Positions 8,393 to 32,000 of a DNA stretch of 32,000 bases are shown one piece after another. The notes beneath the pieces were generated by a model. It searched no databases and was not told where the DNA came from. It saw nothing but the letters and a program-made list of their open reading frames with translations. Each line of letters opens with the position of its first letter. Within the stretch, counting starts at the first letter, position 1. A program made the position numbers and the translations under genes. Source of the DNA: Chlamydiota bacterium (GTDB lineage: Bacteria; Auribacterota; JACPWU01); the NCBI GenBank assembly GCA_016196885.1, contig JACPWU010000003.1:30001-62000 (forward strand), given 5' to 3'.

Positions 8393-8403
8393 ACCGAGTA
8401 TGG

Positions 8404-11849: not shown

Positions 11850-12689
11850 ATGAAGTTTAAAATTTTGACCATTTTAATATTAAGTTTGCTTTTTCCTGTG
11901 AGTAGCGTTTTTGCTGTGGGTTTAAGGGTGAGCCCGGGAAGAGCCACAGTGGTTTTAAAGCCAGGTGAGCAAAAAGAAGGGGTTTATCATATTAAAAATA
12001 CATCGAATACGACTCAAAAGATTTTGGTTCAGGCTGAGGATTGGGTTCAATTTCGACAAGGCAAGCCTCGTGTTCGAGCTGAGGGATGGCTTAATTTTGA
12101 GAAGACAGAATTTGTTTTAGATGTGGGAGAGGAAACAGAGCTAAAGTACAAGGTTCTTTTGGATAAGGATTTTAGAGGGGAAAAAGTGGCCCAGGTTTTT
12201 TTTACCCCTGTTCCGACGGGGGATTCCAGTCAGGGTGTTTCGATTCGTGTTCGTTCGGGTGTTTTGTTGATGGCCATTGCGAAGGAGGACATTCAGGTTA
12301 AGGCTGAGATTGGGATGGTTTCTTGGACCCAACAGAAGGATGGCGTTTCTGCTTTGCAAATTCAGATCAAGGATGCAGGCAATGTCCATATTAAATTAGG
12401 CGGTGAAGTAAAGGTTTTGAATGAAAAGGGGGATGTGATTTGGAAAGGGGTTTTGGACCCGGCCCAGACGCCGGGCCTTTTTGCCGGGGAAGAGAGGCCC
12501 TATTCGCTTCCCTTTAATATGAAAGTTTTGAAAGAGTCGGAGAAATATCTTTGTGTGATTGAATTGGATTATGGCGTGAATGATGCGAAGGGACTTTCTG
12601 TTTCGAAGAAGTTGGATTTGAGATTGGTGGCGAATGAGGTTGTTTTTGCCGAGAGGGTGGGAATACCAGTCGTGAGTCGTGAGTCGTGA
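11850..12689 (+). CDS. Secreted two-beta-sandwich protein, PapD-like periplasmic chaperone-like (alternatively a DUF916/DUF3324-like surface protein)
   Basis: Signal peptide: MKFKILTILILSLLFPVSSVFA. The first domain, LRVSPGRATVVLKPGEQKEGVYHIKNTSNTTQKILVQAEDW ... VAQVFFTPVP ... SIRVRSGVLLMAI, follows the alternating-strand pattern of pilus chaperone domain 1. The second domain, ALQIQIKDAGNVHIKLGGEVKVL ... YLCVIELDYG, also follows the alternating-strand pattern. The coding call is strong; the function call is weak. Confidence 0.6.
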   Translation: MKFKILTILILSLLFPVSSVFAVGLRVSPGRATVVLKPGEQKEGVYHIKNTSNTTQKILVQAEDWVQFRQGKPRVRAEGWLNFEKTEFVLDVGEETELKYKVLLDKDFRGEKVAQVFFTPVPTGDSSQGVSIRVRSGVLLMAIAKEDIQVKAEIGMVSWTQQKDGVSALQIQIKDAGNVHIKLGGEVKVLNEKGDVIWKGVLDPAQTPGLFAGEERPYSLPFNMKVLKESEKYLCVIELDYGVNDAKGLSVSKKLDLRLVANEVVFAERVGIPVVSRES

Positions 12690-12690
12690 G
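12669..12690. repeat. Heptamer array (gtcgtga) x3 that supplies the last codons and stop of the 11850-12689 gene
   Basis: gtcgtgagtcgtgagtcgtgag encodes VVSRES-stop. The same heptamer array occurs in frame in the giant ORF at 19021. Confidence 0.9.
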
Positions 12691-12770: not shown

Positions 12771-12848
12771 GTAGTCGCCCCATTTATGGGGCTGCCCGAT
12801 GAATCGGGCGACTACAAAAGAGGGCTGCCCGATGAATCGGGCGACTAC
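12771..12848. repeat. Two tandem hairpin units of the gtagtcgcc / gcccgat..atcgggc / ggcgactac family, as found in the long inverted repeats
   Basis: gtagtcgccccatttatggggctgcccgatgaatcgggcgactac, followed by gggctgcccgatgaatcgggcgactac. The building blocks are shared with 4520-4591 and 7510-7581. Confidence 0.8.
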
Positions 12849-12928
12849 AAAAAAAGCATGATGGGGAGAACTTTCATTGCATATGATGGTCTCGAATACG
12901 GGTTCGCAATGGCAGAGTGGTGGGATAG

Positions 12929-15900
12929 GTGATGAGTATGGATTTATCCTCTGAAACAAATGCTAAAAATTTTAAGGGTGTTTATGCCCTTTTGCCAGGG
13001 TTCTTTTTTTTTCTTTTTCTCTCCTTTTCTTCCCATTCTCTCTTTGCCTCTTTTGTAGATTCCGATTCTGACCGCATGGACGATGCATGGGAAGGTGCGC
13101 ATGGCCTTAATCCAAGCGATGCATCCGATGGAACAGTAGATTCAGATGGGGATGGGATCATGAATGATGAAGAGTATTTTACCAACCACGATCCCCATGC
13201 CCCCGATCCAACTCTGAGTGACTCAGAGTTGGTGGATCTTGCCGCGAGAAAGGCCTTTCTTTATTTCTGGGAGCAGGCGAAGGTTCCAAGCACGGGTGGA
13301 GTGACAGAGCCTATTTTGATTCCAGATCACTCTGATTTTAATGGGGGGAGTCCCGCTACCTATTACAGCATTGCGGCGATTGGATTTGGTTTAGCTGCAA
13401 TGGTTGTGGCCGATGACCGTGACTGGATAGATCATGTTTCTGCGTATAACCGAATTGATGCGACTTTAAAATTTTTTAGGAGTTTACAGACCAGCACAGA
13501 TGATCAGAAGGTCAAGCATGGTTATTTCTATCACTCTTATGATGTGAATGGAATTCGAACGTCTGGGAGTGAACTTTCAACGATGGATCATGCCATTTTT
13601 GTGGCGGGGGCTCTCTTAGCGGGCCAATATTATCGTGGGACTGAAATAAAGGATTTGGCTGACGAAATTTATTCTTCAACCGAGTGGAATTGGGCCTGGG
13701 ATGGGTCTTTTTTATATAGGGGCTGGGTCGAGGATGGCGGCCCTGTGGAAGGCGGAAGTTGGGTGGGAGGTAGCGCGAAATGGGACAGTTATGCCCAAGA
13801 GATTATTCTTCTTAACTTGGCCATTGGAAACCAAGGGGCGTATAACATTCCGCAAGTCGCTTGGTCTAACATTGCCCGACCTTTGGAACAATATGGTTCT
13901 TTTCCTTCTTATATTCATGTGGGGTCTCTTTATGCCCACCAGTATTCCCATCTTTTTTTGGATTTGAAGAGTCGGCCCGATGCCTTGGGCTATGATTATT
14001 TTGAAAATTCAAGAGTGGCCACAGAGGTCAATCGGCAGTTTGCGATAGATTTGAATTTAAAGGATCCTTTGAAATATGAAACTTATGGGGAAAATGTGTG
14101 GGGGCTTTCTGCAGCGAATGCCTCGAAGGGGTACCAATCTTTGGAGCCCATTCTTTCGACAGAGGATGAGGCTGTGATTGAGGCGTACAATGATTCTGGA
14201 ACGGTTGCGCCTTTTGCCCCCCTGGGTTCTTTACCTTTTACTCCAGAAGAGTCTCTCGGGGCATTGAGAGAAATGTATGAGAATCGAAATTCTTTCTTGA
14301 GTGCTCAGACAATTTGGGGACGTCACGGTTTTTTGAATGCATTTAATACCGGCACAGCTTCAGGAGGACAGAAACCCTATTTTAGCACGCAGGTGATAGG
14401 AATTGATTTGGGCCCGATTGTAGGAATGGCGGAAGATTACAGAACGGGTCTTTTGTGGAAATATTTTTTTAGATCGGCGATTGCCGAGTCGGGCATGGCC
14501 AACATGGGGTTCAGTACCGAGCCGGTCGAACCCCATGTTTTAAATTTTGACAGCGGGTCGGATCCCAACGATTTTGGGGGAGATTCGGGGGGGATTGGGG
14601 GGGGCGATGTTTCTTATGTGACGGATACGCCCGATGGATCGGAATTCTCTGCCCAGGTGAGTGGTTCAAATATCGGAGATGGGGCTTTCATGGGGCTTGC
14701 GGGGCATTCCATTCATCCCTGGGATGGATTTTCAATTTGGGTGAGGGCTTTGTCCGAGGGGGGGTCTTTAGAAGTCGGACTCAAAGATACAGATGGAAAT
14801 CAGTGGACGGTGTCGCTTGCAAGTTATCATCCTCAAGGGGCACTCACACAATCTTGGACGCAAGTGAAAATTCCTTTGGAGCCTTTTGTGGAGGCGGGGG
14901 TACGACTCACCCGTTTGGATGAAATCTTTTTTGTGTTTACTTCTAGTGGCGGCGTTATCCAAGTGGACGATGTTGGATTTTTGGAAGATGTATTTTCCCC
15001 GGATTCCCCACAAGATTTTAAGGCTCAATTTGTGACTCCCGATCGAGTCGAACTTTCTTGGCAAGAAAGTCCTTCTAAGGATGTGGTGGGTTATAAAATT
15101 TATCGCAAAAAGAGTTCTGGAAATTTTGAGGAATTAACGGCCAATGAGAATGGCTATGTTTATTTAGGAACTTCTTATACAGATACTGCGATTGATCCCT
15201 CTCAACAATACACCTATCGCGTGATCGCCCTTGACAATTCTCAAGATTCAGATGATTCGGATGATGGCTTGGAAAGTGAGCCAGCTGAAGATCAAGCCTA
15301 TACCTCAGATAAAGATGGGGATGGTTTGGATGATCAGGAGGAGGCAACTTTGGGGACTGATCCGAATAATTCCGACAGCGATGGAGATGGCGTGAGTGAT
15401 GGAGAGGAAGTGAATCAGAATGGGACGAATCCAAAAGACGCGGATACAGATGACGATGGTTTCACCGATGGCCAGGAGGCCTCGACAAATTCTGACCCTA
15501 AAGATCCAGAGAGCCAGCCAACCCAGATCACGATTACAGCGGATAACCGTTATGTCTTGTATGTGAATGGGGTCAAGGTGGGTGAGGATGACAATTGGAG
15601 TACGGTGGAAAAGTATGTTGTAGATTTGAAGCCGGGAGGAAATGTAGCGATTGAGGCGATAGACTCAGGGGGAATCGCAGGTTTGGCAGTGAATATTTCC
15701 AATGGGACTCAAGTGCAGGTTTCGAATTTTATTTGGCAATGTTCGCTTCAAGCTTCTTCAGGATGGGAGACCGAGGGCTTTGATCATTCGAGCTGGGTGG
15801 GGGCCACAGAACATTTTCAGGTGGGAGGAGGACCGTGGGGAAGGATGGACAGTTTCAATTCTAAGACCCGGTGGATTTGGTCATCGGATGCCTTAAAGGA

Positions 15901-17803: not shown

Positions 17804-17949
17804 GATATCTCTTTCTATCATAACCAAATCTCTTCCAATAGGTTAAATTCATTAAAAATCCTTCAAATAAATCATTTCTTTTTTGACCTTTTTCACCTCT
17901 GAAATGTCCTTATTTGTGAGTACTTTAAATCAGGTACTTATAGGCACTT

Positions 17950-20900
17950 ATGATAAATTCTTCACCTAAAAGGACCAGAGGGTTCCACCTCGGGTTGAAG
18001 TGTGTTTCCACACTGACCCTGATGGCCTTCTTTTTTACCTCCGTATGTGAAACTTCCCTTTTTGCGCAAGAAGGGTTGAAAGTTGGAAGTTGGAAGTTGG
18101 AAGGAAAGGAAAATAAATCCCCTCAGGTTTTTTCTTCCAACCTCAAACCTCCCACTTCCAACTTGCTTTCAAGCGTCTCTATTCCCTCCGTCAGAGGAGA
18201 TGTCCTTCAGCGTTTTCAAGGTAAAGACGATCGTTTGGTGATTCAACTTCAAGACGTGCATTGCCATTTCGAGGCGCAGTCTAATTCGGCCAAGATTATC
18301 AAAGGGTTAATGGATGAACATGGATCCCATGGGCTTCACATGGTGGCAGTCGAAGCAGCAGGCGAGCCTGTGGACACTTCTCTTTTGACTTCTTTCCCGG
18401 ATCCCAAACTCCGAAAAATGTTTGCCGATTATCTCATGAAAATCGGAAAAATTTCTGGAGCTGAATATCTTTCAATCATTCAAGACAAGCCCCTTCCCCT
18501 CGAGGGAATCGAGAACATGTGGAATTATTTTCGACATGTTGTGCAGTTTAATCAGGGTCAGGTGGTGAAGGAAAAGGCGGAACCGATTTTAAATAAAATT
18601 CAAAAGGCGATTTTAGAATTGCGTAAAAAAGTTTATTCCGCAGAGATGAGGAAGTTTCTGAATCAGTCTGAGGCTTATGAAAAGGGAGATATGGAGTTGG
18701 GGGAGTATATAAAACAGTTAAAAGTTGAAAGTTCGAAGTTGAAAGAAAAAGATAAAAACTCCTTGTCATCTTCCAACATCCAACTTTCAACATCCAACAT
18801 TCCTTCCTCCTCCAGCTATCCCAACATTTCTCTCATGCTCCAGATGAAGAAACTAGAGGACAAAATAGATCTCAAGCAAGTTGAAAAAGAAAGAGTCAAA
18901 CTTTTAGAAGATTTAAGCCACAAACTCGTCAAAGAAGAGATGGTGGAGCTGATGACGAAGAGTTTGTACTACAGACTCGAGAAGATGGATGCGTGGGAAT
19001 ATTATGAATATTTAAAGACTGTCGTGAGTCGTGAGTCGTTAGGGGTGAGGGGTCAGAATTCAACGTTAGAGAAAACTTATCCTAACCTTATGAAATACAT
19101 CGAAATGACAGAAATATTTCACGAGATCAAGAGTGATGAGCTTTTGAAGGAGTGTGAAAAGATATCGGAGGAAGTACAAGATAAGTTGTTAAAGACCAAA
19201 GAAGAAAAGGCGCTCAGGCAAATCGAAAAAGACTTTATTATTTTGAGAAACTTTTTTGAATTGGAGATGAAGAAGAGCGAGTTTCAGTATTATGTGGAGA
19301 ATAAGGAGAGGGTTTCGGCTGAGAATATAGTGGAAGGCTTAGAGAAGTTGGAGGGTCAAGGGTCAAGGGTCAAGGGTCAGGATAACTCCCCTCGGTCCCC
19401 TCTTAATTTAAGAGGGGAGGAAAAACAAAAACAAGAGAGAGAGCAAGTAGAGAGTTCCTCCCCTATTTTAAAAGCGGGGGAAAAGCAAAGGCAGGTAACG
19501 TTCTCTCCCCTTAGTTTAAGGGGAGATGGAGGGGTTACAAATGACGACATCACCTTCCTTGACTCTCATCTCAAATCCCTCGAACAATTCTATCGCTACT
19601 CAGACAATCGTGAAGAGGCGATGGTCCAGAACACGCTCCGGAAAATGAAAGAGAACAAGAGTCCGATTGCGATTTTGTATGCAGGAGGATTTCACACTGA
19701 TGGACTGAGCAAGCGTTTGGAGCAAGAAGGAGTGTCTTACGTCGTAGTTGCTCCGCGCATCACTCAATTCAAACTTAAGACCCCGTATTTATCCATTATC
19801 AAGAATGAGCCTTCGAAATTAGAGAAAATGTTGATGGATTTGAATAAAAAAGAAGGGTCCAACCTGGCTGCGATTTTGATTAGCATGAAGCCGGAGGAAT
19901 TAGAAAAAATTATTTCAGATTTTCAGCTTGCTGACACTGACCTCGTCACTGTTTGGATTCGCGATACGATTCGTTTGCTTCGTACTGATAGAACCATGGC
20001 TCTTTTGATTTTAAAAACCTTGATGCTAAAAGATCAGTTAAAAAATTTAAGTGCCTTGGCTCATGTGGGTGACAAGATTCAGGATTTGGAGAAAAGCTGG
20101 TTAAATGAATTCAAGAGGCTTTCGGGAGAAAATAATTTTAATTCAGAAGAAGTTGAAGTCATTGAATTTAAATTGGATCGAGATGTTGTGGTGAATGGCA
20201 ATACAATCACCCTTCAAGTTTTGATCAGTGGCAAACAATCTTTGACCGTGACTCTAAATGTTCATGAAGGCATCGAACAAATGATGAATCGTATCGAAGA
20301 TGCTTTTAAGCCTGTGGCTCTAATACCTCCGGCTTCAGGAGAAAAGGGGGAAGTAAAAAAGTCAGGAGTGCCGCCATGGGTAAAAGCAGTATTTTCTTTT
20401 TTTCTTGTTTTTTTAACTAAATCGCTTTCTGCGGCTCCGAGTGTTTTTGTCAAAGCCCCTCTTTTTGATCCAGGAATGGATTTGGTTGCCTTGCACAGTC
20501 ATTTTGCGATTTGGGGTTCGATGTGGACGTATGCAGCGGTCATTGCGATCCCGCTCGGATTGGTTTTTATGTTTTGGGCCTTGGGCAAGATTAAGTCTCG
20601 ATGGGTGGAGGCAAGAATAAGAGCGATTGTGGAAGAGGTGGAGCAACCGCAACTTCTTTCAGAAACGATTTCTTCAGGAACAGTTTCTTCCCGAGTTCAT
20701 CTTTTTGATTTTGAATTCGCTTCAGATATTCCTCAATCTGAAAGAGAGCGTGCCTCAGCATTTTTTCAGGATGTTCTAGGTGATGAGCTTCAAATGTGGG
20801 AAAGAAATTTGCTCCGTCAATATCCAGTTTTAGATTCAAGGGAATTGAGATTTCATGTTCGATTTGTAAATGAAACTCCATCTGAAAAATGGGCTCTGAA

Positions 20901-23900
20901 AATGGAAGAGGGAGGTCTGGTTGTTAATTTAGGGGCCTTTCTTTCTGCTAAGGGCGCAAAAGCAAATTTAAGGTCTTATTTTGAAAGACTGAAGGTGGAG
21001 CGTGAAAGAGATTTGTCTGGGCGCAGAGATTTGATTGCACTCCCTCAGCAAGTTTTGAAGGGAGACGGTAGACTTTTTGTTGATTATTCGAGCGGGATTC
21101 GAAAGGTGTTGGTCAGCCAAGAAAACGCAGGTTCTTTATGGAGATTGGCAGGGCAGATCAAGGGACATCCGCAAAGAGTCGTACCTTTGTTGGATCAATT
21201 GGAATCTCAGGCGGTGACAGCTGTTCTTTATGATAGAGAGGGTCAGCCCTTTTCGCTTTTGATCTATGTGCCTGGTTTTACAGATCAGGTCTACGACTGT
21301 CCCTTGATTCGGGACCGGACAAGATATGATGAACTTCTTTCGGTTTATCGTTCGCTCTCTTCTATTCCTTCAGTGGAAATGGTCAGGAGGAATGATGTTT
21401 CTGTAGAAGATGTGAAAGATCTTTTAGGGGACAGAGATCATGTTGAGTTTTTTGTGAGATGGGCTTCAAAGGCGGCAGAGAAGAAGCGTCCTTCTTTCTG
21501 GAATGTTTTGCGTGCTTTGGCATTGTGGATGACAAAGGGAGAGCGAGAACGATTTGATGAGATGCTGGAAAAATACTTTGGCACTTCCTGGTTGGGTCGG
21601 TTGATGGCAATGGGTTTTTGTCTCTTCATAGGGACTGCGTTCAGCGCCATCATCATTGGTTGTCTTGGTTCTCCGACGAAAGCTGATGCAGCTTATTTTG
21701 ATGTTTCGTCTCATGGGGGAACTCTTTCTGCTGAGGTTCAAAAAGCACCTTCTCAGAAAGGGGGAGACGTAGAAAGTGAGGGAGACATTCAGGCGGATAT
21801 CGAAAGATTAGAAAAGGGAATACAAGCTTTAAACGAGGAAAATGCTTCTGCGACCTCAGGCTCTGGCGCAAAAGAAGAGAAAGCACCTCCCGTAGAAGAA
21901 GTAAAAAAGACTGAAGGGGGAAAGAAGAAGGCCGAACCTGAATGGACGAAGAAAAAGAGAGAGGAGTATGAAAGAGATTTGGCAAAAGAGAGAGAGGCTT
22001 TTAAGAAAAAGGCAGGTGCACCTCATTCAGAAAATCTTACGCTTCAGCCTACAGAAAATCTTACTGACTTAAAAGGAAAAATACAGGCGATAGAAGAACA
22101 AAAAAGACTTGAAGAGTTAACCATTGATACCCTCGAATATTTAAGTGCCCAGCTTCGAGTGGAAACCCTGAATCAACAAGCCGCAAGTCTTGAGCAGGAA
22201 ATCGTGGCCTTAAAAGATCAGTTGAATCAGGAAGAAAAACTTTCTCCGACTGATAAAGAGAGTCTTCAGAAAAGACTTCATGGAAAAGAAGAAAAGTTTC
22301 AGACATGTCAACAGTCTCTTCAGGAATTAAACGCTGAGATAAATGCCATGAGGCATGATTCAAAAATCGAAGAGGGTTTTAAAGAAAAATCAGATGAAGA
22401 ATTGGAGAAAGCCATGAAAGGGCATCTTAAGGAATATTTTATTCTTCATGTCAGATTACAACGTTATCAAGCAATGATGCAAGATCTCTTGGGTACAAAA
22501 AAGAGAGATTCCGGTGTTCAAGCGCAATCCAGTTCCTCTGCCAAAGTTCAATTAATTCCTTCTTCTCAAGATTTAAAACCTGCTCAGGGTTCTTCCCCCC
22601 AGAGTTTGCGTGAGTCTATTAAATATTTTATTGAGAGAGGGGTGAAACATTTTGATGAGATGAGTCAGGATGATGATGCGCTGGCCCAGTATCTTTATGA
22701 TCAATATCGTTTGAAGGGCAGGGGTGAGTTAAAAGGAGAAGTTAGGATTGGGTGGCAGAATTATTATTCTTATGGGACTGCTGGATCTGATTCCTATGAA
22801 GCTCAATCGGAAGAGGATGTGGTGGCGACTTTGTTTTTCGACAAGACGATTGATAATGCAAAAAAAGAGCAAATGAAATCAGCCTTTTGGCGTTTAGAAG
22901 CTCAACATCGTATGCAGCTTCAGGGACAATATGACGCCTGGGCTGGGATTTATCAATTGACGGGAGAAGTGCTGAAGGCAAAAGCCAATATTGAAGTTCA
23001 GAAAAAATTTGAGACAGAGGCTAAATCTTTGGTGGATCAAATGCAGGAGCGTTTCTTGAAACCCCGCGAGATGGATGAGGCTCAAGGGGGGGACCCCAGG
23101 ATTTTTCAAACGCGATACTTGAATCGTTGGCATGAAGCTCAGGCCAGCCGTATTCAGGCTGAAGAAGCTTATGAGACAGCTTGCTTAAGACTAAAAGGGC
23201 TTTCCGGAATGGCTGTTGATGATGAGATTCAAATACCCGGCTCTTTGGAGGAGTGGAGTGTATTTGATATTGAATCTCTTTTTAAAGAGATTTCTGAGGA
23301 ATTAAAAAATGAGGGAGTGAATGCAAAGTTTATGGATCAAAGCGTTCAAATTAGCACTGCTTTGGTGAATGAGGCTGCCTTTTGGAAAAAGGAATTGGAC
23401 GAGAATGACGTTTCGCTTGAGATGAAATTGGGAGCAGGCTTACAGGGGCGATGGAACATGGATACTTCGGGTGGTTTTGAATGGCCGTTTAATCCCTTTG
23501 TTTCTGGAGAATTTGAGTTAAAAATTTCTCTCCTCGATTGTGTTGCAAAGGCTCAAGGAAGGGTGGGTGAAGTCATTAATCAAATGGCGGTTCTGAGGAT
23601 GGATGAGGCAAAAAAAGGTTTGTACTTTAAGTATTTAAATGCCCAGGCTGAGCTGGAGGCAGCCCAGAGAATTTTGAAGGTTTTAGAGAAGGTTTTAGAG
23701 GTTGAGTTGAAAGAAATGAGTGTGGAGCCTCCGGTGCTGCAAAGTGATTTGGAGCTTGAGTGGGACCGGATTGGCGTGAGTCGGAATTTGGAGATCGCTC
23801 GCAATGAGGCTTTGGCAAGAATTGCCAGTGCCCGACTCAAAATGACGGGGTACCGCGCTCAGATACCTCCTGAAGAGTTGAAAAAAGTAGACGCGCTCGT

Positions 23901-26900
23901 TGATTTTGATCAATTGTTCGGCCCTGATTTTGGGGCTTTGAATGTTTCAGCTTTTCTCAAAGCTTTGGCCACAGAATGGGTGGGTGGTGAGGTGACGGAT
24001 TTGACTTCTGTTCCGTGGGAAAAAATTTTCCCATCCGACATGGCTGAACGGATGAAAGGAATAAAGGATTATGATCATGATTTAAGAATAGACGCCAATC
24101 AAGATCTCCTGAAAAAAATCATAGAAAAAATGAATGAATTGATTCAACAGGAGGATTTTCTTTTTCGTCATCCCTCTATAGGTTCTTTAAGTTTCGATGG
24201 TTCTGCTATGCAATTTTTAAATATTCTGATTCAGGATGGAGTGCTGAATGCTCAGGACTACCATCCAAAACAAGATTTGACTCCAGAAGAAAAATTCCAA
24301 ATTTATACTTTGAATCGTTTGGTTTTAGAAGAGAAATATCCTGAAGTTTTTAAAGTTCAACTTTCTTTTCCTATCGCAGCCCAGAAGGCTGTTCAAGGTT
24401 CGGGCGCTTTAAGGGGACAAGAGTTGGAGGAACAAGCTCATACCGCACGAGGGAAAGTAGCTTTTAACAGTCGGATTCCGGTTGTTCAGGGAGGGCTGAA
24501 TGTCAATTTTAATCTGGGAACTTATGGGGATCCGATTGGATACCGTTTTGATCAGGGCCAACCGTTCATTGGGGACAATCCTCACGCCCATTTGACTTTG
24601 ACGGGGGGCACCTCTCTTTGGTTGGCGGCGACTGGACCTCTCCCTATCTTTGGAAAAACGTCCGAACAAAGGGCTCATGTGAAGGCTGAAAAGGGATGGA
24701 TTCAAGCGCGTGAAGAGGAAATTACAAATCAATTGATGGAGGGTTTGTATAACGTCTTTAAAAATGTAGCATTGGCTCAATCGGATCTTCAGAGACTTCA
24801 AAAAGAACTTGCAGAATTAAGGGCGTTTAAAGAATTGCTTGAGAGAAAACACACAGAGGTGCCTTTGACTGAAGAGCAATACCTTTCTCAAGCTCAAAAG
24901 GTTTGGCTCAGAATCATGGAAAAGAGAATTGAAATTAACCGCATGGAAAGCACCCTTGAAGGTTATCGGATAGATGTTTTGAGTCGAATGGGTGATGAAC
25001 ATTTAAAAGGTCAATTTCTAGATTGGCCGAAAGAGCCGTCTGAGCAGAGGGCCAGAATGATTCAGATGGGGAAAGAGGTTGCTTCTGGAATAATTCCTCA
25101 ATCTAATTTGAATTTGGAAACCGCACAGGTGAATGTAGCGAGAGAGGTTTTGGGCAATACCAGTGCTGCTCCTACAATCACTTGGACTGTCGGCGCAGCA
25201 GCAGGACCCTCTTTCCCTGAACTTTTCAGAGCTGAGGATCAAAATGAGGCCTGGAGGGTGCTTCCGTTTCTTGCGGGTTGGGTGGGTATTCATGGGACAT
25301 TGCCGCAGCCTGGCCTGAAAAAAGCTCAAGTGAATGCAGCACAACAAAAAGTTTTTGAGGAAGAGGGAGAACTGGAACGGTTAAAACAGGAACAAACAGC
25401 GGAGGAGCTTTTGGACTGGAGAGAGTATACCCGTTTAGAAGTTCAGGTAGATGAAATATCTGAATTGTTAGCGGAGGCAAAATCCCTCTATCAGGATATT
25501 CAGGAAGATTTAAAAATTCCGGGACAGTGGGGGAAGCAGTATCAGCCTGAGAACCTTTTGAGGGTGATGAATTTAATTTCGATGGTTGAAGAGGAATGGA
25601 CTCGTGTGGAGTGGTCCCTCAATGGTTTTAAGCATGTGAATTTAAGAAAGTTGGGTGTGGATGAAAGTAATTTCGAAGAGAGAAAAGCTCAAGCTCTTGC
25701 AAGGCTTGAAAAGGGTGAGGTGCCTCAGACAGGAGTTGCATCTAGTTCTTCGCAAAATCTTGCTCAGGCGCGGTCTCAAACGACTCTCAATCCTCAAGGC
25801 CCGCATTCTTTGATTCAAGTAGCCCAAAGAGCCATTCTCTACCACCCCAATGTGGAAAGCGCTTATTTAAAGGTTCAGGCGCTTGAGGCGAAGAAGAAAG
25901 AGGCTCAAGCCCATAAGTGGCCAGCAGTGACTTTATCTGGGGGTGCGAGGAGTGATTCTCCCAAGCTGGCGAATGAACGCTATCCCTCTATTTATAATAG
26001 CGGATATGCTGGATATGAGCCGGGGATTGAAGGACAAAAACCAGAATGGCCGCCAAAAGTTCAGGCGAGTGGTTCGGCGACAGGCAATGTTCGTTTTTGG
26101 GATGATTCAGAGGTCAGAGAAGTAGAGGCAGAATTAGGGGCGGCTCGAGCAGACTTAATGCAAGCTGTTTTAAATGCTTTTTATGAAAGCGTTCTTCTTT
26201 ACTATGATCTTGTTTTTGAAATGGAAAAAGCCAAAGCTTACTCCCAAGATTCAGAACATAAATATGCCTTGGCGCGGTCCATGTGGTTGAGAGAAAGACT
26301 TTTGTTGGCCTCCCAGATTGATACCCATGAAGTGGGTATTGAAGCCTTAACTTCTCTTTTAAGGCTTTCACCCTCCGGAATGGGGCAGGCTCAAAATCGT
26401 GCCAGAAGTTTGTTGATGATTGATTTTGATTTGGTCCCGTCAGAAGGCCTGCCTGATATTTCTTCTTTGGTGGCTCAAATGCATTCGGTTCTTTCTACGG
26501 GAACAGGCAGTACGGAAATTGAAAATCTTTTAAAAGAATTATGTGCTCGAGATCCAAAGTCGGTTATTTTTCAGGCCTTGGGAGAGAAGGAAAGAGCGGC
26601 CGGGCAGGCGGTTCGTCGCGATCGTCTGGGAACCTGGCAATTGGTTTTTGATTCCCCGGATTGGCGAAAAGGTCAGGTGGAAGCGATGCTGACGTGGACA
26701 AAAGTTTTTTTGGATGGCGGAAAGAAAGAATCAGCGATTCAGTTGCATAAAAGATTGGAAAAGAAGGCAAAAAGAGAGGCAAAAGAATATGAGAGACAAC
26801 AACTTCTCGATGTGGCGCAGGCTTTCAAGGAAGTTCTTTCTCAAGCAGGGCTTTTAGAGGTTGAGCTAGAAAAAATTAAAGTTTCTGAGAAGCAAGTTGA

Positions 26901-29900
26901 GCTTTTAATGGAGCGTTTAGATGTGCCTTCCAACGATCAAGCAAATCCTCATGATCTTAAAACACACGCGTCCGATGTGCAGGACTCTTTTAGCAAATTG
27001 CTTGAGGCCTGGACGATTTTAAGAGATGTTCAAGTGAGTTCTCAAACCGCCGTGGCTGAGATGGAAAGAAGGTTTTGGACACTCAAGAAAACCCTTGCCC
27101 TGGCCCAGGCCCATGGTTCTCCAGATCCTGAACGCAAGAGATATCTGGATGAGGTACAAGCCTTTCTCGATTCAACGCATGTGGCTGAAGTATCTGCAAC
27201 TGCGCCTGTACAGGTCGAGCCTGCGACAAAGCTTTCGACAGAATTAAGAGAGGGATTGAAAGCGCAAAAGGCTTTGGATAAAAAGTTAGAGGAAGGGACA
27301 GAGGAGCCGAGAGTTCCTGTCTCCAGACCCGTCGAGCTTCCCTCTCGTGTGGGAGTTCAAAGGAATCAAGTTCCTGCTTTTAAGAGTCTGGTTCCAGAAC
27401 CGCCTTTGGAATATCAAGCTCGTGACGAGACGTTGCCGGAAGCCAAAAAAGAGAACCATCGTGCAGAGCCAAAACCAGAGGAGCCTCCGAAACCCAATGT
27501 GGGAGAGGAGGAACATACGTTTTTGAATCCGGAGGGCTGGGTGTGGAGGTCTATGCGTTGGTGTAGGGGATGGAAAATAGGACGGTCTATTTTAAATTGG
27601 TTAGGAGAAGATGAGGTTGTAGCTACTTTGGAACGTCTTCATCTTCTTGAAAATGGACAACAATTGCTGCGTCGTCAAAGAGAAATTGAGGTGGATGATG
27701 CCAGTCGTATTAAAGAATTGAAAAAAAAGGGAACCCAGGCTCAGGAGAGAAAAGCAAGGGAAGAACTTCGTGAAATACGAACTCGACTTGAAGAAGAACG
27801 TGAACAGATTTTTGAAGAGCACTATGGGCTTTTTCTTCACACGGTGGATTACACTCAGGCTCATCATGACAAGCTCGAGGAGAGAACGAAAACAGAGCCC
27901 TATATTCTTTGGCGGTCTTTTATTGATCTTCCCATGTTTCCAACTTACCCGGATCCGATTGAGTTGAAAAATGTGCCCTGGATTGTTCAGAAGATGAGGA
28001 ATGCCATGTCTGCAGGTCATTTTTCAGGGATTGATCCTCGTATTATTACGGAAAACGGTTTGAAATGGGTTTTCAACACGTATGGTCAAATTCGGGGTCG
28101 ATCTCCCCAGGACATGAATGATTATTTTGATGCGTGGACTCTTTTGGGATCACATATAGATCAGAAATTGGCTTCTTTGAGAAAGGAGTTGGGTTTAGAA
28201 AATTCAGATGAAAGGGAATGGAATGATTGGCTGAATGGGACTTTTTTCCCGAATGGTTTTGCCTCGACTTTTTCGGGTTTACTCGGGATTGAGCGTTCTT
28301 CAGCTCTGACAGATCAGGAACTTGGAAATCCTCATGCAGGTATCAGGCGCTTGGGCTATTTCAGTGCGTTATCTTCTTTGGCTGTGAAGATGCGACACGA
28401 AAATCCAAAAGATTCCATGGAGACGATGATAGGAAAAATGGTTGCCCCCGGAGGCGATTTAGATCACTCGTTTGACTGGATGAAGACCCGGGCTCTTCAT
28501 TTTGGTCAGGGGACGCTTTCTCTTCAAAGCGACGAGAAATTTATCAAGGATGATCTTCATTATCAGGAAAGTATTTTTGTGGATGAATTCTCTCAATTGA
28601 AAGAACGAAAATTCGCCCAGGCGGTCATTGATCATACCGATGCGGCAAGAATTCTATATTCCGTGATGTATAGCTCTGACTTTGGAATTGTGGATAAGAA
28701 TGGGAGCGGTTTGGAACATGCAGACCTTGAGACTTTAAGACGTAAGCTCTCCATGTCAGATGACTATGAGAGTCAAAGCTTTGTTTTGTCTATTGCCAGC
28801 GTTGCCATGGCACATCATATTTCTCCTGAAAAAATGCTTGATTTAGCCGGTAAGGCCCGCCGTGTGATGGGACCCGAAATTGCAAATATTTATGCGTCTC
28901 GCCTGACGCGTGAGGCCTTTTTGACAGAACCTTATTTTGCTCAGGATGCTGGTAAATTAAGACATCTTGTTCGAGCTCAAAAATTTCATAAGGAGAAGGC
29001 TCAGGCTTTGCTTGCTCAAGGCGATACTGCAATGGCTGCAGAAAATGAGAAAATGGCCAAGGAATATCGAGAACGAGCACAGATAGAAGAGCAGGCTCTC
29101 AAGAAACGTTTGGTGCGTTCCCTTCTCATGTATTGGACAAACTGGGCTGTTGAATTTTTGCTCGAGCGTGAAAAAGATCCCAAGGTTGATCCCATTGAAG
29201 AGTTAAAGAAATTTTTTAGATTGTTACCCCAATATCAGGCAGTGATGAGCAATGATCCGATGGGGCTTTATCCCGATCGGTCTTTTGACATCATGAACCC
29301 CAGGGATTCTGGAGTTCTGGTTTATTGGACGAAAATAGGTGCCATTCGGGGAATGGAGGCCCAGGAGCTTCGAACCCTTCACCATCGCATGGTGTCCATT
29401 GGAAGCATGGATGTTTTTCGGCGTGTATTGAAGCTTTTTGACATTCATGCGGGTAACGAGTTAGATCCAGAAAATAGAGATCAGATGGGAGCGGCCATGA
29501 TGTATGCCGTTAGAGCAAATAAATGGAATTGGGGAGATTCAGACGTGATTCGCTACTTAGAAAATGTAGAGTGGATTTTGAAGAATCAAGAGATGAAGCT
29601 CACCATGATTGAACAGTGGTATTTGGGGGGGGAGGTAGAGAAGGCAGAACGAATGGCTGCCTTTTTTTGGAAGGACATGTCTTCGTTGGAAGAAGTTTTG
29701 ACCGCACGAGCTGGGCGACCCGATCAGGAGTGGCGTGTTTCAAATGATCAATTACGAATGCTTTGGACGGCGGGTCATGAAAAGGCTCAGGACATTGATC
29801 TCAAATATGGAAAAGACTATAAGAAGGCCTTGCTTTATTCAATGGTTAGTTTGGTGGATGAATTTATGGTCCGGTGGGGGGTTGATCAAGTTTCCTTGGT

Positions 29901-32000
29901 TCAATTGGAGCAAGGCGTCAATCGATTTCTGGATCGTGTAAAGACTGAATGGAAAAAGGCAGAGATTTCCTCCGATAAACTTTTCTGGCAGAGAATGAAT
30001 CGCCAGGATGTGGCGTTGGCTTTTGTCATCACATTGAGACGGCAGGGATTGTCCACAGAAAATGCCTTTGCGCATCTTCAAGATCTTCAACGAGCCGTGG
30101 AACGGAGTCAATCTAGTTTAAACTATTTAGAATCATTGCTAGGTTCTGAGACTTCAAATCAGGTACGTGAAGCGGTTGAACGAGGAGATCGACAGGCTTT
30201 ACTTCTCTTGAAAAGAGAGATTATGGATGGATCGAAGGTTTGTATTGATCCTAATGTCGATCGATATTTAATATCCCTTCTGCAGTTTATTTCAAGTGAG
30301 GGTGCTGTCCATATGGACCTCATGCTAGATAAGATGGCCGAAGTGCTCAAGGCCCATCGTAAATCTCATCTTTCTTTACAGACCGATCTTGTCCCAGGTC
30401 TTCAGATTTGGCAGGCAGAAATGTCGGTTTATGGCTGGGGGGAACTTGAGAAGGTTTTTGGGAAAGACATCCTTCAACAAATTCAAGAGGCTGTGAGGCT
30501 TGACAAGCCAGAAGATGTTGCGAAAATTACACTTTCTCCTGACATTCGTCACCGGGCCGAAGAGGCCATGGTGGGATCCAGCCGAGGAAGGCCGGTGGAG
30601 CAATATATTCGATATGTCCTTCTGATTTTAGAAATCGAGAAGGCTCCCTTGACACTCCCCTTTCATGAAGTGACTTTTTTTGGAGAAGATTTTTTTAAGC
30701 GAGGCGCCTCTCCTACTTTCATTTTGGATTATTTTAAGGCCAGAACTTACCTAAGATCCAGTTATTCTCTTTATCATCGTGCCGCGGGCAATTTTGAAAG
30801 TTTGGAGCCGTTTATTGAGGAAGTGGATCGCGAGAATAAAACGATCATGGGTTCACAGAAAGAGAGAAGGCTTTTTGTCCAACCTCTAACCCCCCCCGAG
30901 AAATTGTCACCGGGGGAAGAGGGGTCCTATCTTTATCGCTTCGAAATGGGACTCGATTCCTATTTTGACATGGGTAATCATGATATTCAGATGTCGGCCT
31001 TGATTGTTCGCGGCGAACGAGAGATGTTATGGAAATTTGAAGAAATGAGGGTGAAGCATATTCCTGAGCTTAGGGAACAGTTGGCTGAGGCAAGAGAGCG
31101 CGGAGATGAAAAATTAATCGAGCAACTCGAAAAGGCTTTAGAGAAATGGAAAGAGGCTCGGATCGTGCCGTTTACTTATCGGGAAGTAAAAGAATTTCTC
31201 GAAGCAATTAAAAAGGGGGAAATGGATAAGCATGAGATTGATCTATTTTTTGAAACCGCTCTTTATTTTCAAACCAAACTTTTGGATTCGGGTCTCGTGA
31301 CGCTGGACTACTTTAATGGTGTGTCCTATTTAGTGAATCATTTTTGGAACGAACCCGGCCTTTTTGAGTGGCTGATGCAGTATCGTACGGAAACTAAAAT
31401 TGTTGAATTGTGGACCCAAGAGCCTGACAAAAAGGATTTGGGGCCGGAGGGAAACCGCTGGAAAATCTATTCACTTTTGGGACGCATGATTGCTCAAGGA
31501 ACTCCGTCTAGCGAATTGGTTGAGCGCCTGGTGAATCTTGATTTAGAACTTTCAGGGAAAGGGGTTCCCAATGATCGGTCAAAAACTCGGATGAAAGAGG
31601 GCATTGAAGCATTTCAAATTTTGAGGGATGTGATGATAGAAATGTTGGGGCCGAGCCTTCATAATCAAGAAAAGAAGACGGCCTTTCGCCGTTTGATTGA
31701 GGAATTGCTTGAGAGCCCATCTTCTTTAGGTCCATCTTTAGAAAATTGGCTTTGGGGTGTTCTGGAAAGCCGTATTGGAATCACGGAGGCTCAAGATTGG
31801 AAATTAAATAAAGAACGACTCTCTCAAGTTAGAAAGGATGATGAAAAGACAAAGGCGGATACGGCTGATCGTGCAAATGCCATTATGAGAGAACGTCCCA
31901 ACCTTTTAATGAAGACAGATCTTAAAAAATCTGATTTGCGTCTTTTAGGAATGGATCCAAAAACGGCGGATGAGTTCTGGCAATATTTAACTCAATCAGG
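17950..32000 (+). CDS. 5' part (4683 codons, still open at the window end) of a giant secreted/envelope protein
   Basis: Hand translation of the frame starting at ATG 17950 (in-frame TAG at 17941-17943 just upstream) gives no stop up to base 31998. The track contains no ORF in this frame across these 14 kb, and fragments of 60 aa or more would be listed if stops existed. It contains only short antisense ORFs. N-terminus MINSSPKRTRGFHLGLKCVSTLTLMAFFFTSVCETSLFA|QE is signal-peptide-like. No clear SD was seen. Confidence 0.9.
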   Translation, partial: MINSSPKRTRGFHLGLKCVSTLTLMAFFFTSVCETSLFAQEGLKVGSWKLEGKENKSPQVFSSNLKPPTSNLLSSVSIPSVRGDVLQRFQGKDDRLVIQLQDVHCHFEAQSNSAKIIKGLMDEHGSHGLHMVAVEAAGEPVDTSLLTSFPDPKLRKMFADYLMKIGKISGAEYLSIIQDKPLPLEGIENMWNYFRHVVQFNQGQVVKEKAEPILNKIQKAILELRKKVYSAEMRKFLNQSEAYEKGDMELGEYIKQLKVESSKLKEKDKNSLSSSNIQLSTSNIPSSSSYPNISLMLQMKKLEDKIDLKQVEKERVKLLEDLSHKLVKEEMVELMTKSLYYRLEKMDAWEYYEYLKTVVSRESLGVRGQNSTLEKTYPNLMKYIEMTEIFHEIKSDELLKECEKISEEVQDKLLKTKEEKALRQIEKDFIILRNFFELEMKKSEFQYYVENKERVSAENIVEGLEKLEGQGSRVKGQDNSPRSPLNLRGEEKQKQEREQVESSSPILKAGEKQRQVTFSPLSLRGDGGVTNDDITFLDSHLKSLEQFYRYSDNREEAMVQNTLRKMKENKSPIAILYAGGFHTDGLSKRLEQEGVSYVVVAPRITQFKLKTPYLSIIKNEPSKLEKMLMDLNKKEGSNLAAILISMKPEELEKIISDFQLADTDLVTVWIRDTIRLLRTDRTMALLILKTLMLKDQLKNLSALAHVGDKIQDLEKSWLNEFKRLSGENNFNSEEVEVIEFKLDRDVVVNGNTITLQVLISGKQSLTVTLNVHEGIEQMMNRIEDAFKPVALIPPASGEKGEVKKSGVPPWVKAVFSFFLVFLTKSLSAAPSVFVKAPLFDPGMDLVALHSHFAIWGSMWTYAAVIAIPLGLVFMFWALGKIKSRWVEARIRAIVEEVEQPQLLSETISSGTVSSRVHLFDFEFASDIPQSERERASAFFQDVLGDELQMWERNLLRQYPVLDSRELRFHVRFVNETPSEKWALKMEEGGLVVNLGAFLSAKGAKANLRSYFERLKVERERDLSGRRDLIALPQQVLKGDGRLFVDYSSGIRKVLVSQENAGSLWRLAGQIKGHPQRVVPLLDQLESQAVTAVLYDREGQPFSLLIYVPGFTDQVYDCPLIRDRTRYDELLSVYRSLSSIPSVEMVRRNDVSVEDVKDLLGDRDHVEFFVRWASKAAEKKRPSFWNVLRALALWMTKGERERFDEMLEKYFGTSWLGRLMAMGFCLFIGTAFSAIIIGCLGSPTKADAAYFDVSSHGGTLSAEVQKAPSQKGGDVESEGDIQADIERLEKGIQALNEENASATSGSGAKEEKAPPVEEVKKTEGGKKKAEPEWTKKKREEYERDLAKEREAFKKKAGAPHSENLTLQPTENLTDLKGKIQAIEEQKRLEELTIDTLEYLSAQLRVETLNQQAASLEQEIVALKDQLNQEEKLSPTDKESLQKRLHGKEEKFQTCQQSLQELNAEINAMRHDSKIEEGFKEKSDEELEKAMKGHLKEYFILHVRLQRYQAMMQDLLGTKKRDSGVQAQSSSSAKVQLIPSSQDLKPAQGSSPQSLRESIKYFIERGVKHFDEMSQDDDALAQYLYDQYRLKGRGELKGEVRIGWQNYYSYGTAGSDSYEAQSEEDVVATLFFDKTIDNAKKEQMKSAFWRLEAQHRMQLQGQYDAWAGIYQLTGEVLKAKANIEVQKKFETEAKSLVDQMQERFLKPREMDEAQGGDPRIFQTRYLNRWHEAQASRIQAEEAYETACLRLKGLSGMAVDDEIQIPGSLEEWSVFDIESLFKEISEELKNEGVNAKFMDQSVQISTALVNEAAFWKKELDENDVSLEMKLGAGLQGRWNMDTSGGFEWPFNPFVSGEFELKISLLDCVAKAQGRVGEVINQMAVLRMDEAKKGLYFKYLNAQAELEAAQRILKVLEKVLEVELKEMSVEPPVLQSDLELEWDRIGVSRNLEIARNEALARIASARLKMTGYRAQIPPEELKKVDALVDFDQLFGPDFGALNVSAFLKALATEWVGGEVTDLTSVPWEKIFPSDMAERMKGIKDYDHDLRIDANQDLLKKIIEKMNELIQQEDFLFRHPSIGSLSFDGSAMQFLNILIQDGVLNAQDYHPKQDLTPEEKFQIYTLNRLVLEEKYPEVFKVQLSFPIAAQKAVQGSGALRGQELEEQAHTARGKVAFNSRIPVVQGGLNVNFNLGTYGDPIGYRFDQGQPFIGDNPHAHLTLTGGTSLWLAATGPLPIFGKTSEQRAHVKAEKGWIQAREEEITNQLMEGLYNVFKNVALAQSDLQRLQKELAELRAFKELLERKHTEVPLTEEQYLSQAQKVWLRIMEKRIEINRMESTLEGYRIDVLSRMGDEHLKGQFLDWPKEPSEQRARMIQMGKEVASGIIPQSNLNLETAQVNVAREVLGNTSAAPTITWTVGAAAGPSFPELFRAEDQNEAWRVLPFLAGWVGIHGTLPQPGLKKAQVNAAQQKVFEEEGELERLKQEQTAEELLDWREYTRLEVQVDEISELLAEAKSLYQDIQEDLKIPGQWGKQYQPENLLRVMNLISMVEEEWTRVEWSLNGFKHVNLRKLGVDESNFEERKAQALARLEKGEVPQTGVASSSSQNLAQARSQTTLNPQGPHSLIQVAQRAILYHPNVESAYLKVQALEAKKKEAQAHKWPAVTLSGGARSDSPKLANERYPSIYNSGYAGYEPGIEGQKPEWPPKVQASGSATGNVRFWDDSEVREVEAELGAARADLMQAVLNAFYESVLLYYDLVFEMEKAKAYSQDSEHKYALARSMWLRERLLLASQIDTHEVGIEALTSLLRLSPSGMGQAQNRARSLLMIDFDLVPSEGLPDISSLVAQMHSVLSTGTGSTEIENLLKELCARDPKSVIFQALGEKERAAGQAVRRDRLGTWQLVFDSPDWRKGQVEAMLTWTKVFLDGGKKESAIQLHKRLEKKAKREAKEYERQQLLDVAQAFKEVLSQAGLLEVELEKIKVSEKQVELLMERLDVPSNDQANPHDLKTHASDVQDSFSKLLEAWTILRDVQVSSQTAVAEMERRFWTLKKTLALAQAHGSPDPERKRYLDEVQAFLDSTHVAEVSATAPVQVEPATKLSTELREGLKAQKALDKKLEEGTEEPRVPVSRPVELPSRVGVQRNQVPAFKSLVPEPPLEYQARDETLPEAKKENHRAEPKPEEPPKPNVGEEEHTFLNPEGWVWRSMRWCRGWKIGRSILNWLGEDEVVATLERLHLLENGQQLLRRQREIEVDDASRIKELKKKGTQAQERKAREELREIRTRLEEEREQIFEEHYGLFLHTVDYTQAHHDKLEERTKTEPYILWRSFIDLPMFPTYPDPIELKNVPWIVQKMRNAMSAGHFSGIDPRIITENGLKWVFNTYGQIRGRSPQDMNDYFDAWTLLGSHIDQKLASLRKELGLENSDEREWNDWLNGTFFPNGFASTFSGLLGIERSSALTDQELGNPHAGIRRLGYFSALSSLAVKMRHENPKDSMETMIGKMVAPGGDLDHSFDWMKTRALHFGQGTLSLQSDEKFIKDDLHYQESIFVDEFSQLKERKFAQAVIDHTDAARILYSVMYSSDFGIVDKNGSGLEHADLETLRRKLSMSDDYESQSFVLSIASVAMAHHISPEKMLDLAGKARRVMGPEIANIYASRLTREAFLTEPYFAQDAGKLRHLVRAQKFHKEKAQALLAQGDTAMAAENEKMAKEYRERAQIEEQALKKRLVRSLLMYWTNWAVEFLLEREKDPKVDPIEELKKFFRLLPQYQAVMSNDPMGLYPDRSFDIMNPRDSGVLVYWTKIGAIRGMEAQELRTLHHRMVSIGSMDVFRRVLKLFDIHAGNELDPENRDQMGAAMMYAVRANKWNWGDSDVIRYLENVEWILKNQEMKLTMIEQWYLGGEVEKAERMAAFFWKDMSSLEEVLTARAGRPDQEWRVSNDQLRMLWTAGHEKAQDIDLKYGKDYKKALLYSMVSLVDEFMVRWGVDQVSLVQLEQGVNRFLDRVKTEWKKAEISSDKLFWQRMNRQDVALAFVITLRRQGLSTENAFAHLQDLQRAVERSQSSLNYLESLLGSETSNQVREAVERGDRQALLLLKREIMDGSKVCIDPNVDRYLISLLQFISSEGAVHMDLMLDKMAEVLKAHRKSHLSLQTDLVPGLQIWQAEMSVYGWGELEKVFGKDILQQIQEAVRLDKPEDVAKITLSPDIRHRAEEAMVGSSRGRPVEQYIRYVLLILEIEKAPLTLPFHEVTFFGEDFFKRGASPTFILDYFKARTYLRSSYSLYHRAAGNFESLEPFIEEVDRENKTIMGSQKERRLFVQPLTPPEKLSPGEEGSYLYRFEMGLDSYFDMGNHDIQMSALIVRGEREMLWKFEEMRVKHIPELREQLAEARERGDEKLIEQLEKALEKWKEARIVPFTYREVKEFLEAIKKGEMDKHEIDLFFETALYFQTKLLDSGLVTLDYFNGVSYLVNHFWNEPGLFEWLMQYRTETKIVELWTQEPDKKDLGPEGNRWKIYSLLGRMIAQGTPSSELVERLVNLDLELSGKGVPNDRSKTRMKEGIEAFQILRDVMIEMLGPSLHNQEKKTAFRRLIEELLESPSSLGPSLENWLWGVLESRIGITEAQDWKLNKERLSQVRKDDEKTKADTADRANAIMRERPNLLMKTDLKKSDLRLLGMDPKTADEFWQYLTQS
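18075..18162. repeat. Inverted pair of 4-unit heptamer arrays (gttgaaa, then gttggaa x3 / ttccaac ctcaaac ctcccac ttccaac) in frame inside the giant ORF
   Basis: Arrays at 18075-18102 and 18135-18162 are separated by 32 nt. Translated as LKVGSWKLEGKENKSPQVFSSNLKPPTSN. Confidence 0.85.
18717..18798. repeat. Second inverted pair of 4-unit heptamer arrays (gttaaaa gttgaaa gttcgaa gttgaaa / ttccaac atccaac tttcaac atccaac) in frame in the giant ORF
   Basis: Arrays at 18717-18744 and 18771-18798 are separated by 26 nt. Translated as LKVESSKLKEKDKNSLSSSNIQLSTSN. Confidence 0.85.
19021..19055. repeat. Five tandem heptamers (gtcgtga x2, gtcgtta, ggggtga, ggggtca) in frame in the giant ORF
   Basis: Read directly. 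Translated as VVSRESLGVRGQ. Confidence 0.85.
19353..19380. repeat. Heptamer array gggtcaa x3 plus gggtcag in frame in the giant ORF
   Basis: Read directly. Translated as (E)GQGSRVKGQ. Confidence 0.9.
19397..19525. repeat. Three short hairpin units of one family inside the giant ORF
   Basis: cccctcttaatttaagagggg (19397-19417) and ctccccttagtttaaggggag (19505-19525) are palindromic. cctcccctattttaaaagcggggg (about 19458-19481) is an imperfect palindrome. Translated as SPLNLRGE, SSPILKAGE and SPLSLRGD. Confidence 0.75.
22603..27120 (+). other. Six tandem TolC / outer-membrane-factor (OEP)-like repeats, equal to three TolC-protomer equivalents in one chain (domain of the giant ORF)
   Basis: The best unit is 25800-27120. 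It reads LIQVAQRAILYHPNVESAYLKVQALEAKKKEAQAHKWPAVTLSGG ... GNVRFWDDSEVREVEAELGAARADLMQAVLNAFYESVLLYYDLV. It then reads LLKELCARDPKSVIFQALGEKERAAGQAVRRDRLGTWQLVF ... MLTWTKVFLDGGKKESAIQLHKRLEKKAKREAKEYERQQLLDVAQAF. Four earlier units show the same helix, strand, strand, long-helix, helix pattern, starting near 22603, 23272, 24375 and 25020. Confidence 0.5.

Follow-up and report, generated by a model that had tools for sequence, protein, structure and literature searches.

The stretch analysed here (the window: 32,000 nucleotides, positions 30,001 to 62,000 of contig JACPWU010000003.1 in assembly GCA_016196885.1) carries the 5' 14 kb of a giant open reading frame (ORF). Two palindromes made of tandem heptamers, el1 and el2, lie inside this ORF and are translated as part of it. 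These elements are old and fixed in frame, and probably arose by insertion; they are not recent jumps, and a role as an on/off switch is very improbable. On balance, we consider it probable that array palindromes were fixed in frame at an ancient date in loops of a secreted domain, were inherited by the paralogues of that domain, were kept open by selection and were partly homogenised by gene conversion. In-frame selfish palindromes are known mainly from Rickettsia, and convergent heptamer arrays form an unexplained intergenic class. The locus joins both, and it provides a concrete case of repeats of the non-coding type turned into protein sequence in giant genes.

The age of the insertions is indicated by paralogues of the giant protein. 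When a profile of the el1 and el2 peptides was run against 1.84 billion cluster representatives, only two true matches were obtained, P0004 and P0005. Both are encoded by the same metagenome-assembled genome (MAG) as the window, with identical copies in a sibling MAG, and both are paralogues of the N-terminal domain of the giant protein, this domain being fused in P0004 to a histidine kinase. The two elements occupy the same positions in P0004 and P0005 as in the giant protein, and in all three proteins el1 follows directly on the signal peptide. Since the sites are shared by the three paralogues, the six genomic copies result from gene duplication rather than from six insertions or from recent transposition. 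A 5.8-billion-protein index, searched with a profile of the element peptides from the window and from the Omnitrophota locus L100 described below, returned no match; as this index also lacked the match of the giant protein to itself, the result carries little weight.

The course of events that we propose would begin in the ancestor of this protein subfamily, which would have gained the elements in frame at tolerant stretches, namely the linker behind the signal peptide and the loops between helices. We infer that they originated by an insertion or copy-paste event involving a putative enzyme. Gene duplication would then have passed them into at least three paralogues of one genome. They would persist because they can be translated and are free of stops in frame, while the arrays themselves would evolve through slipped-strand turnover, of which only the frame-preserving, stop-free outcomes would survive.

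The architecture of both elements was analysed by two programs. Tandem Repeats Finder detected all four arrays at period 7, with 4.1-4.4 copies each, and an inverted-repeat search recovered arms of 33 nt with 82% complementarity in el1 and of 30 nt with 80% complementarity in el2. Together with the sequence itself, these results confirmed the design described in the initial annotation, which consists of four heptamers, a loop and four inverted heptamers. The left array of el1 is GTTGAAA followed by GTTGGAA x3, and is separated by a spacer of 32 nt from the inverted units TTCCAAC/CTCAAAC/CTCCCAC/TTCCAAC. In el2, a spacer of 26 nt separates GTTAAAA/GTTGAAA/GTTCGAA/GTTGAAA from TTCCAAC/ATCCAAC/TTTCAAC/ATCCAAC. 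The family consensus has arms of tandem 7-nt units, GTTSGAA on one side and TTCSAAC on the other, around an A-rich loop. A pattern of three units with at most two mismatches matched six times in the window, always within el1 or el2, as against no match in 100 shuffles. The two elements align over their full length, including the loop, whereas their flanks cannot be aligned, and for this reason we regard them as two copies of one family.

Both elements are predicted to form RNA hairpins, with energies of -32.4 kcal/mol for el1 (z -1.8) and -21.3 kcal/mol for el2 (z -5.5). Both are read in the frame of the giant ORF, el1 as LKVGSWKLEGKENKSPQVFSSNLKPPTSN, immediately C-terminal to the signal peptide, and el2 as LKVESSKLKEKDKNSLSSSNIQLSTSN, in exact agreement with the translations first given for them. 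A search of the elements against Rfam returned no family; the only matches, all below threshold, were to plant microRNA precursors and are explained by the long hairpin shape. Two regulatory functions of the elements were also considered, namely a terminator and an internal promoter in which the TTGAAA units would serve as -35 boxes; both were rejected, since the promoter and terminator scan of el1 and el2 gave no signal. The positions of the features are collected in Table 1.

Table 1. Heptamer arrays, hairpins and the giant ORF in the window (positions are those of the window).
Feature	Position	Strand	Composition or basis
el1, heptamer-array palindrome	18075..18162	+	left array 18075-18102, loop 18103-18134, inverted array 18135-18162
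el2, same family as el1	18717..18798	+	left array 18717-18744, loop 18745-18770, inverted array 18771-18798
Site 3, run of six heptamers	19021..19062	+	GTCGTGA x2, GTCGTTA, GGGGTGA, GGGGTCA, GAATTCA
Site 4, composite	19352..19526	+	AGGGTCA x4 (19352-19379, perfect), then three CCCCT...AGGGG hairpins
GTCGTGA x3 array, perfect	12669..12690	+	closes ORF 11850-12689; 95% identical to the copy at 19021-19042
Giant ORF, 5' 14 kb	17950..32000	+	open frame 17944-32000+, translation, gene call

The gene call in the NCBI assembly GCA_016178005.1 gives a product of 9,014 aa for the giant ORF, with a TTG start at 17995. A neighbouring ORF of the window recurs verbatim on contig JACOUD010000054.1 of that assembly, and this contig is the same as the window across 1850-22918, the only differences being a single mismatch and an indel of 229 bp (14586-14814). 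A look-up of the neighbouring 1,621-aa protein brought up no further assembly of the element region. The proteins of this MAG are labelled by NCBI as Chlamydiae/Chlamydiota bacterium. An assembly artefact was considered as the source of the elements and was ruled out by this identical, independent assembly and by the copies in the paralogues.

Residues ~1-40 of the giant protein form a signal-peptide-like N-terminus, and the protein is regarded as secreted. Residues ~75-610 form an uncharacterised domain with the motifs QDVHCHFEAQ and AGGFHT. Searches of this domain against Pfam, NCBIfam, PDB and folds all gave no match. The domain may serve as a sensor module or as an enzyme module acting outside the cytoplasm. 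In the window (17950-19830) and in P0004, the motifs QDxHxxxEAQ and GG(F/Y)H are invariant, and the domain occurs in several architectures: alone (P0001), with a histidine kinase (P0004) and heading the 9,014-aa protein.

Sites 3 and 4 are further in-frame repeat sites of the same ORF. Site 3 is translated as VVSRESLGVRGQNS, and the hairpins of site 4, at 19397-19417, 19460-19479 and 19504-19526, encode SPLNLRGE, SPILKAGE and SPLSLRGD, respectively. Such arrays were found neither in the remaining 12.4 kb of the giant ORF within the window nor in the other ORFs of the window. In order to place the four sites in the domain, we used its three distant homologues (P0001-P0003, 24-32% identity) and a predicted structure. 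In a four-way alignment, the loop and the right arm of el2 fall into gaps in all three homologues, the GTCGTGA run of site 3 falls into a gap of exactly 7 aa (21 nt, 3 units) relative to P0001 and P0003, and the site 4 block lies mostly inside a gap of P0001-P0003. The stretch between signal peptide and domain that holds el1 is variable in all homologues, and the absence of el1 is not judgeable there. The AlphaFold2 model has a mean predicted local distance difference test score (pLDDT) of 69.6, with confident helices and strands outside the termini and four low segments. These segments of pLDDT <50, at residues 31-70, 269-287, 364-368 and 472-520, correspond to el1, to el2 (loop and right arm), to site 3 and to site 4. 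As modelled, the four repeat sites thus occupy low-confidence loops, which are structurally tolerant places.

Arrays of this kind can be read through because 7 and 3 have no common factor: whichever frame is used, the GTTGGAA array gives the same cyclic peptide, VGSWKLE, and the inverted arm gives FQLPTSN, free of stops. The GTTGAAA unit, on the other hand, brings a TGA in frame at one unit in three. At the stop-prone unit, AGT-TNN-AAG, el1 has TGG as the middle codon, and el2 as well as the L100 copies c2 and c3 have TCG. In each copy checked, the unit able to place a TGA in frame bears a substitution, which indicates selection for continuous translation. The same can be followed at the GTCGTGA array. 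The ORF 11850-12689 ends PVVSRES*, its TGA stop coming from the third GTCGTGA unit, while the copy at 19021-19042, in the same phase and with one G-to-T change relative to the array at 12669-12690, reads VVSRESL. The same array is therefore a stop signal in one gene and coding sequence in the giant gene.

We searched for relatives of the elements in one genome per species, using three GTTGRAA units as the query. The query matched at least 120 stretches of genome; among the phyla represented were Bacteroidota, Acidobacteriota, Cyanobacteria, Patescibacteria and Planctomycetota. Among the matches listed, 23 of the 127 arrays had an inverted partner within 150 nt, and a paired array lay inside a long ORF only in L100, a locus of Candidatus Omnitrophota nzgw332. 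The ORF concerned, of 1,943 aa with its 5' end open at the locus edge, is unrelated to the giant protein except for the elements, which it carries in frame at least five times, as copies or variants; EVGSSKLEGRAKKDQNKNVSSSNFQLPTSN is one of the resulting peptides. Two of these copies, c1 and c2, have almost identical loops and unrelated flanks, and a AAAAATAAAAC-like core is common to the element loops of the window and of L100. In a leave-one-genome-out nhmmer test, a profile made from the copies of one genome recovered those of the other, and for every clear copy the score in coding orientation was 5-18 bits above that of the antisense strand, whereas hairpins from other phyla mostly showed a strand asymmetry of about 1 bit. 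A two-arm pattern scan of metagenomes gave eight contigs, with none of the eight hairpins in a long ORF; the hairpin of locus L133 sits between two co-directional genes. Judging from these sequences, array hairpins with similar arms appear to be a widespread intergenic class; a conserved loop together with in-frame placement was observed in no more than two MAGs, both of the PVC group. In the representative library, public proteins P0007, P0010 and P0012 are simply long heptamer arrays in translation (HRTSNIQHPTSNIE repeats are one example) and are likely to be spurious ORF calls over ATCCAAC/ATCGAAC-type arrays.

The arrays differ between paralogues at sites 3 and 4. In the P0004 paralogue, site 3 reads ACATCGT x4 ... 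CGAAGTA x3 (L134 7075-7200) and forms a longer hairpin (-38.7 kcal/mol, z -4.0); its counterpart in the window is (GTCGTGA)3(GGGGTSA)2. At site 4, the AGGGTCA x4 array is perfect in the window and degenerate in the paralogue, and the middle hairpin is present only in the window. These differences and the arrays of the P0001 gene indicate array turnover over evolutionary time, with the loops of the domain as hot spots. In the P0001 gene (L001 1261-1450), the hydrophobic N-terminus of P0001, LIAYSLRLIAVFLTAYRLQLK..., is specified by roughly 14 GCTTAYM heptamers, which have a super-period of 36 nt and follow on inverted GTAAGC-type units; this signal-peptide-like region may be repeat-derived, or the start may have been called too far upstream.

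Array palindromes also occur between genes of the same MAG. At L134 3766-4036, TTCGTCG-type and CGACGAA-type arms of 34 nt, 79% complementary, lie 203 nt apart with a GTAGTCGCC palindrome nested between them, and the right array stops 3 nt ahead of the ATG of a GlmS-like gene. The initial annotation had proposed that repeat families of the intergenic DNA also colonise ORFs. This is borne out insofar as heptamer arrays and array palindromes are found in intergenic DNA as well (12669-12690; L134 3766-4036), but the intergenic families of the window itself are different ones, and an nhmmer profile detected no GTTGGAA-type hairpin in its intergenic DNA.

Several observations weigh against ancient in-frame fixation of inserted elements. 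No copy of the el1/el2 family was found outside the paralogous sites, in unrelated genes or in intergenic DNA, over the ~43 kb of the source genome formed by the window and L134, so that mobility inside the source genome is not demonstrated. No transposase domain was present among the window ORFs or the genes called around them, no target-site duplication was seen, and no direct repeats flank el1 or el2. In the alignment with the distant homologues, K/E-rich residues stand opposite the left arm of el2, part of which could be native sequence. Selection for hydrophilic codons could, as a side effect, account for the orientation of the A-rich loop. In other phyla, copies in one genome have common arms and unlike loops, which fits local generation as well as copy-paste. 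Finally, el2 is conserved far above its flanks, at synonymous sites too, which is unexpected for plain junk. In a codon alignment of the window with the P0004 gene (L134), the background showed 62-73% nucleotide identity, and where the amino acid was identical, the codon was the same in about half of the cases. Over el2 the identity reached 94.8%, with 27 of the 28 synonymous codons identical, and over the first CCCCT hairpin (19360-19419) all 16 of 16 were identical. Conservation of this kind at the synonymous sites of el2 needs either gene conversion or selection, and poses a testable question, gene conversion at palindromes versus a functional hairpin. If selection acted, the elements would be functional nucleic-acid hairpins within coding sequence, kept at the nucleotide level, for example for ribosome pausing ~40 codons past the signal peptide or as processing or stabilising sites in the 27-kb mRNA. 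The values for el2 and for the CCCCT hairpin agree with this, as do the invariance of 29 of the 33 el2 residues across the three paralogues, rivalled only by the QDVHCHFEAQSNSAK motif, and the constant place of el1 right behind the signal peptide. However, a covariation test found no compensatory base-pair change in the 8-copy alignment, and with its two arm substitutions the el2 hairpin of the paralogue is less stable (-10.9 instead of -21.3 kcal/mol). Moreover, el1 is conserved only at the background level (66.7%), the raised identity spans ~18670-18970 and thus runs about 170 nt past el2, as in a gene-conversion tract, and the elements have no Rfam family, promoter or terminator signal. We consider functional hairpins decidedly unlikely, and infer that the conservation of the el2 DNA reflects gene conversion between paralogues, centred on the palindromes.

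An origin in situ, without a mobile element, is also unlikely, if to a lesser degree. Slippage biased to 7-nt units would then have produced the arrays, intrastrand template switching (quasi-palindrome formation) would have produced the inverted arm, and the likeness of the copies would reflect convergent unit sequences and coding constraints. Heptamer simple sequence repeats (SSRs) are over-represented in bacteria, with slippage proposed as the cause (PMC4692102, PMC4679880). The same arms with different loops in the hairpin copies of other genomes are in line with such an origin, as is the perfect AGGGTCA x4 of the window where the paralogue array is degenerate; the differing heptamers of site 3 in the paralogues and the GCTTAYM arrays of P0001 suggest a local hot spot. 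An origin in situ is harder to reconcile with the combination of arms and oriented A-rich loop common to el1, el2 and the L100 copies, with the nearly identical loops of c1 and c2 despite unrelated flanks, and with five copies in one unrelated ORF, which are hard to obtain independently. The initial annotation had also raised phase variation, in which the gain or loss of one unit would toggle the giant surface protein. The length of the unit, 7 nt, is not divisible by 3; el1 lies just past the signal peptide, where contingency repeats are typically found; and the predicted frame shift was borne out, since adding or removing a single unit leads to a stop within 2-50 codons at every array, while three units keep the frame. 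Yet the long perfect tract of a phase-variable contingency locus is absent, with three perfect 7-nt units in el1 and none in el2. The length of el2 is equal in all paralogues, and the two sibling assemblies do not differ across 14815-22918 or in the paralogue, so that the comparison of siblings, which had been suggested as a check, revealed no variation in unit number between these two; Logan contigs stop short of the region. The substitution in each TGA-prone unit likewise points to selection for continuous translation. Phase variation thus found no support, and such a switch is very improbable.

A broader reading may also be put forward, prompted by the 95% DNA identity of el2 between paralogues that otherwise share 62-73%. 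In MAGs of the PVC group, both Chlamydiota-labelled and Omnitrophota-labelled, a distinct family of translated heptamer-array hairpins may recurrently join very large secreted proteins and be kept there at the nucleotide level, either as functional RNA or DNA elements or as linker raw material or a recombination hot spot for giant genes. We regard this reading as rather doubtful.

Other features of the window were noted in passing. The 229 bp at 14586-14814 that are missing from JACOUD010000054.1 begin at a G-rich 10/11-nt tandem repeat (14574-14604), and without them the 1,624-aa glycoamylase/TSP3 ORF is split in the NCBI assembly into two genes, one of 566 aa and one of 996 aa; the difference reflects a collapse in assembly or else a genuine polymorphism. 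A palindrome family of the intergenic DNA, GTAGTCGCCCSATTTATSGGGC / GCCCSATRAATSGGGCGACTAC, which has no relation to the heptamer hairpins, occurs at 4517-4594, 7508-7583 and 12764-12855 and at L134 3829-3914. It is followed by a conserved AAAGCATGATGGGRAGAACTTTCAT stretch, located upstream of genes, at window 12855-12900 and L134 3915-3955. According to the gene calls of L122, a toxin-antitoxin-type cluster (PemK, two PIN, HEPN with nucleotidyltransferase, and HTH) lies at 4436-8647 between two giant genes, and within this region, at 6659-6706, the perfectly inverted 23-nt arms of a repeat (ATCTCTCGTCCCCAGCCCTTTGT / ACAAAGGGCTGGGGACGAGAGAT) enclose a loop of 2 nt. The upstream giant gene, of 6,016 aa, has an intein-splicing match and a P-loop NTPase region.

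The closest parallel in behaviour is provided by the Rickettsia palindromic elements (RPEs; Ogata et al. 2000, 2002), in-frame palindromes within the ORFs of Rickettsia which leave the host ORF open (PMC10969869). The comparison made in the initial annotation holds for the in-frame palindromes, for the homologue gaps at el2 and at sites 3 and 4, for the tolerant loops and for the copies in the unrelated L100 ORF; dispersal to unrelated sites of the source genome was not seen in the ~43 kb covered. As with RPEs, short palindromes lie in open ORFs, encode a peptide compatible with the fold and have copies in unrelated proteins. They are in frame, absent from homologues (with the reservation given above for el1) and located at a tolerant site. 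At 82-88 nt, with arms of 30-33 nt, el1 and el2 are somewhat shorter than the hairpins of ~100-150 bp given there for RPEs. RPEs measure ~150 bp, belong to defined Rickettsia families and are not tandem heptamers; they number dozens of copies in unrelated genes of one genome, whereas the copies of el1 and el2 seen in the source genome occupy two homologous sites in three paralogues. The host here, moreover, is a PVC-group MAG (labelled Chlamydiota by NCBI) and not Rickettsia.

In their build, the elements resemble the GGGAATC arrays of Xanthomonas and the GGGGAYT arrays of Nostoc, which form 70-75 convergent pairs per genome and are capable of stem-loops (Rehm et al. 2015, PMC4692102). These arrays prefer about four units and are intergenic, under-represented in ORFs and in some cases placed over stop codons (PMC4692102). 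They share with el1 and el2 the tandem 7-nt units, the copy number of about four and the inverted second array nearby. In contrast, they are G-rich, quadruplex-forming and intergenic, while el1 and el2 have no G3 tract, lie in an ORF and are wholly translated. The cyanobacterial STRR heptamers can be grouped with the convergent heptamer SSR arrays as a close known system. The TAACTGA heptamers of Beggiatoaceae, Cyanobacteria and Bacteroidetes, with 2-6 scattered units (MacGregor 2015, PMC4679880), are likewise short arrays scattered in a genome, with stops in the forward direction and an open reverse. Nearly all of these, however, are direct repeats just upstream of starts, with one indirect case, and not in-frame palindromes. 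ERIC and MITE elements have occasional in-frame intragenic copies (PMC10969869), and REP/REPIN and MITE elements are similar in being small, non-autonomous hairpin repeats that are sometimes nested (PMC3116915, PMC10969869). The arms of el1 and el2, unlike theirs, are tandem heptamers, and no RAYT or transposase, no terminal inverted repeats with target duplication and no high copy number were seen in the sequence covered here. The small dispersed repeats of Nostoc, reportedly treated by Elhai et al. in 2008, can be placed beside the REP/REPIN and MITE-type repeats. Published accounts of giant genes in Omnitrophota that were examined mention neither palindromes nor heptamers. Membership of either of the two closest systems is not demonstrable; the locus is RPE-like in its behaviour and convergent-heptamer-array-like in its build.

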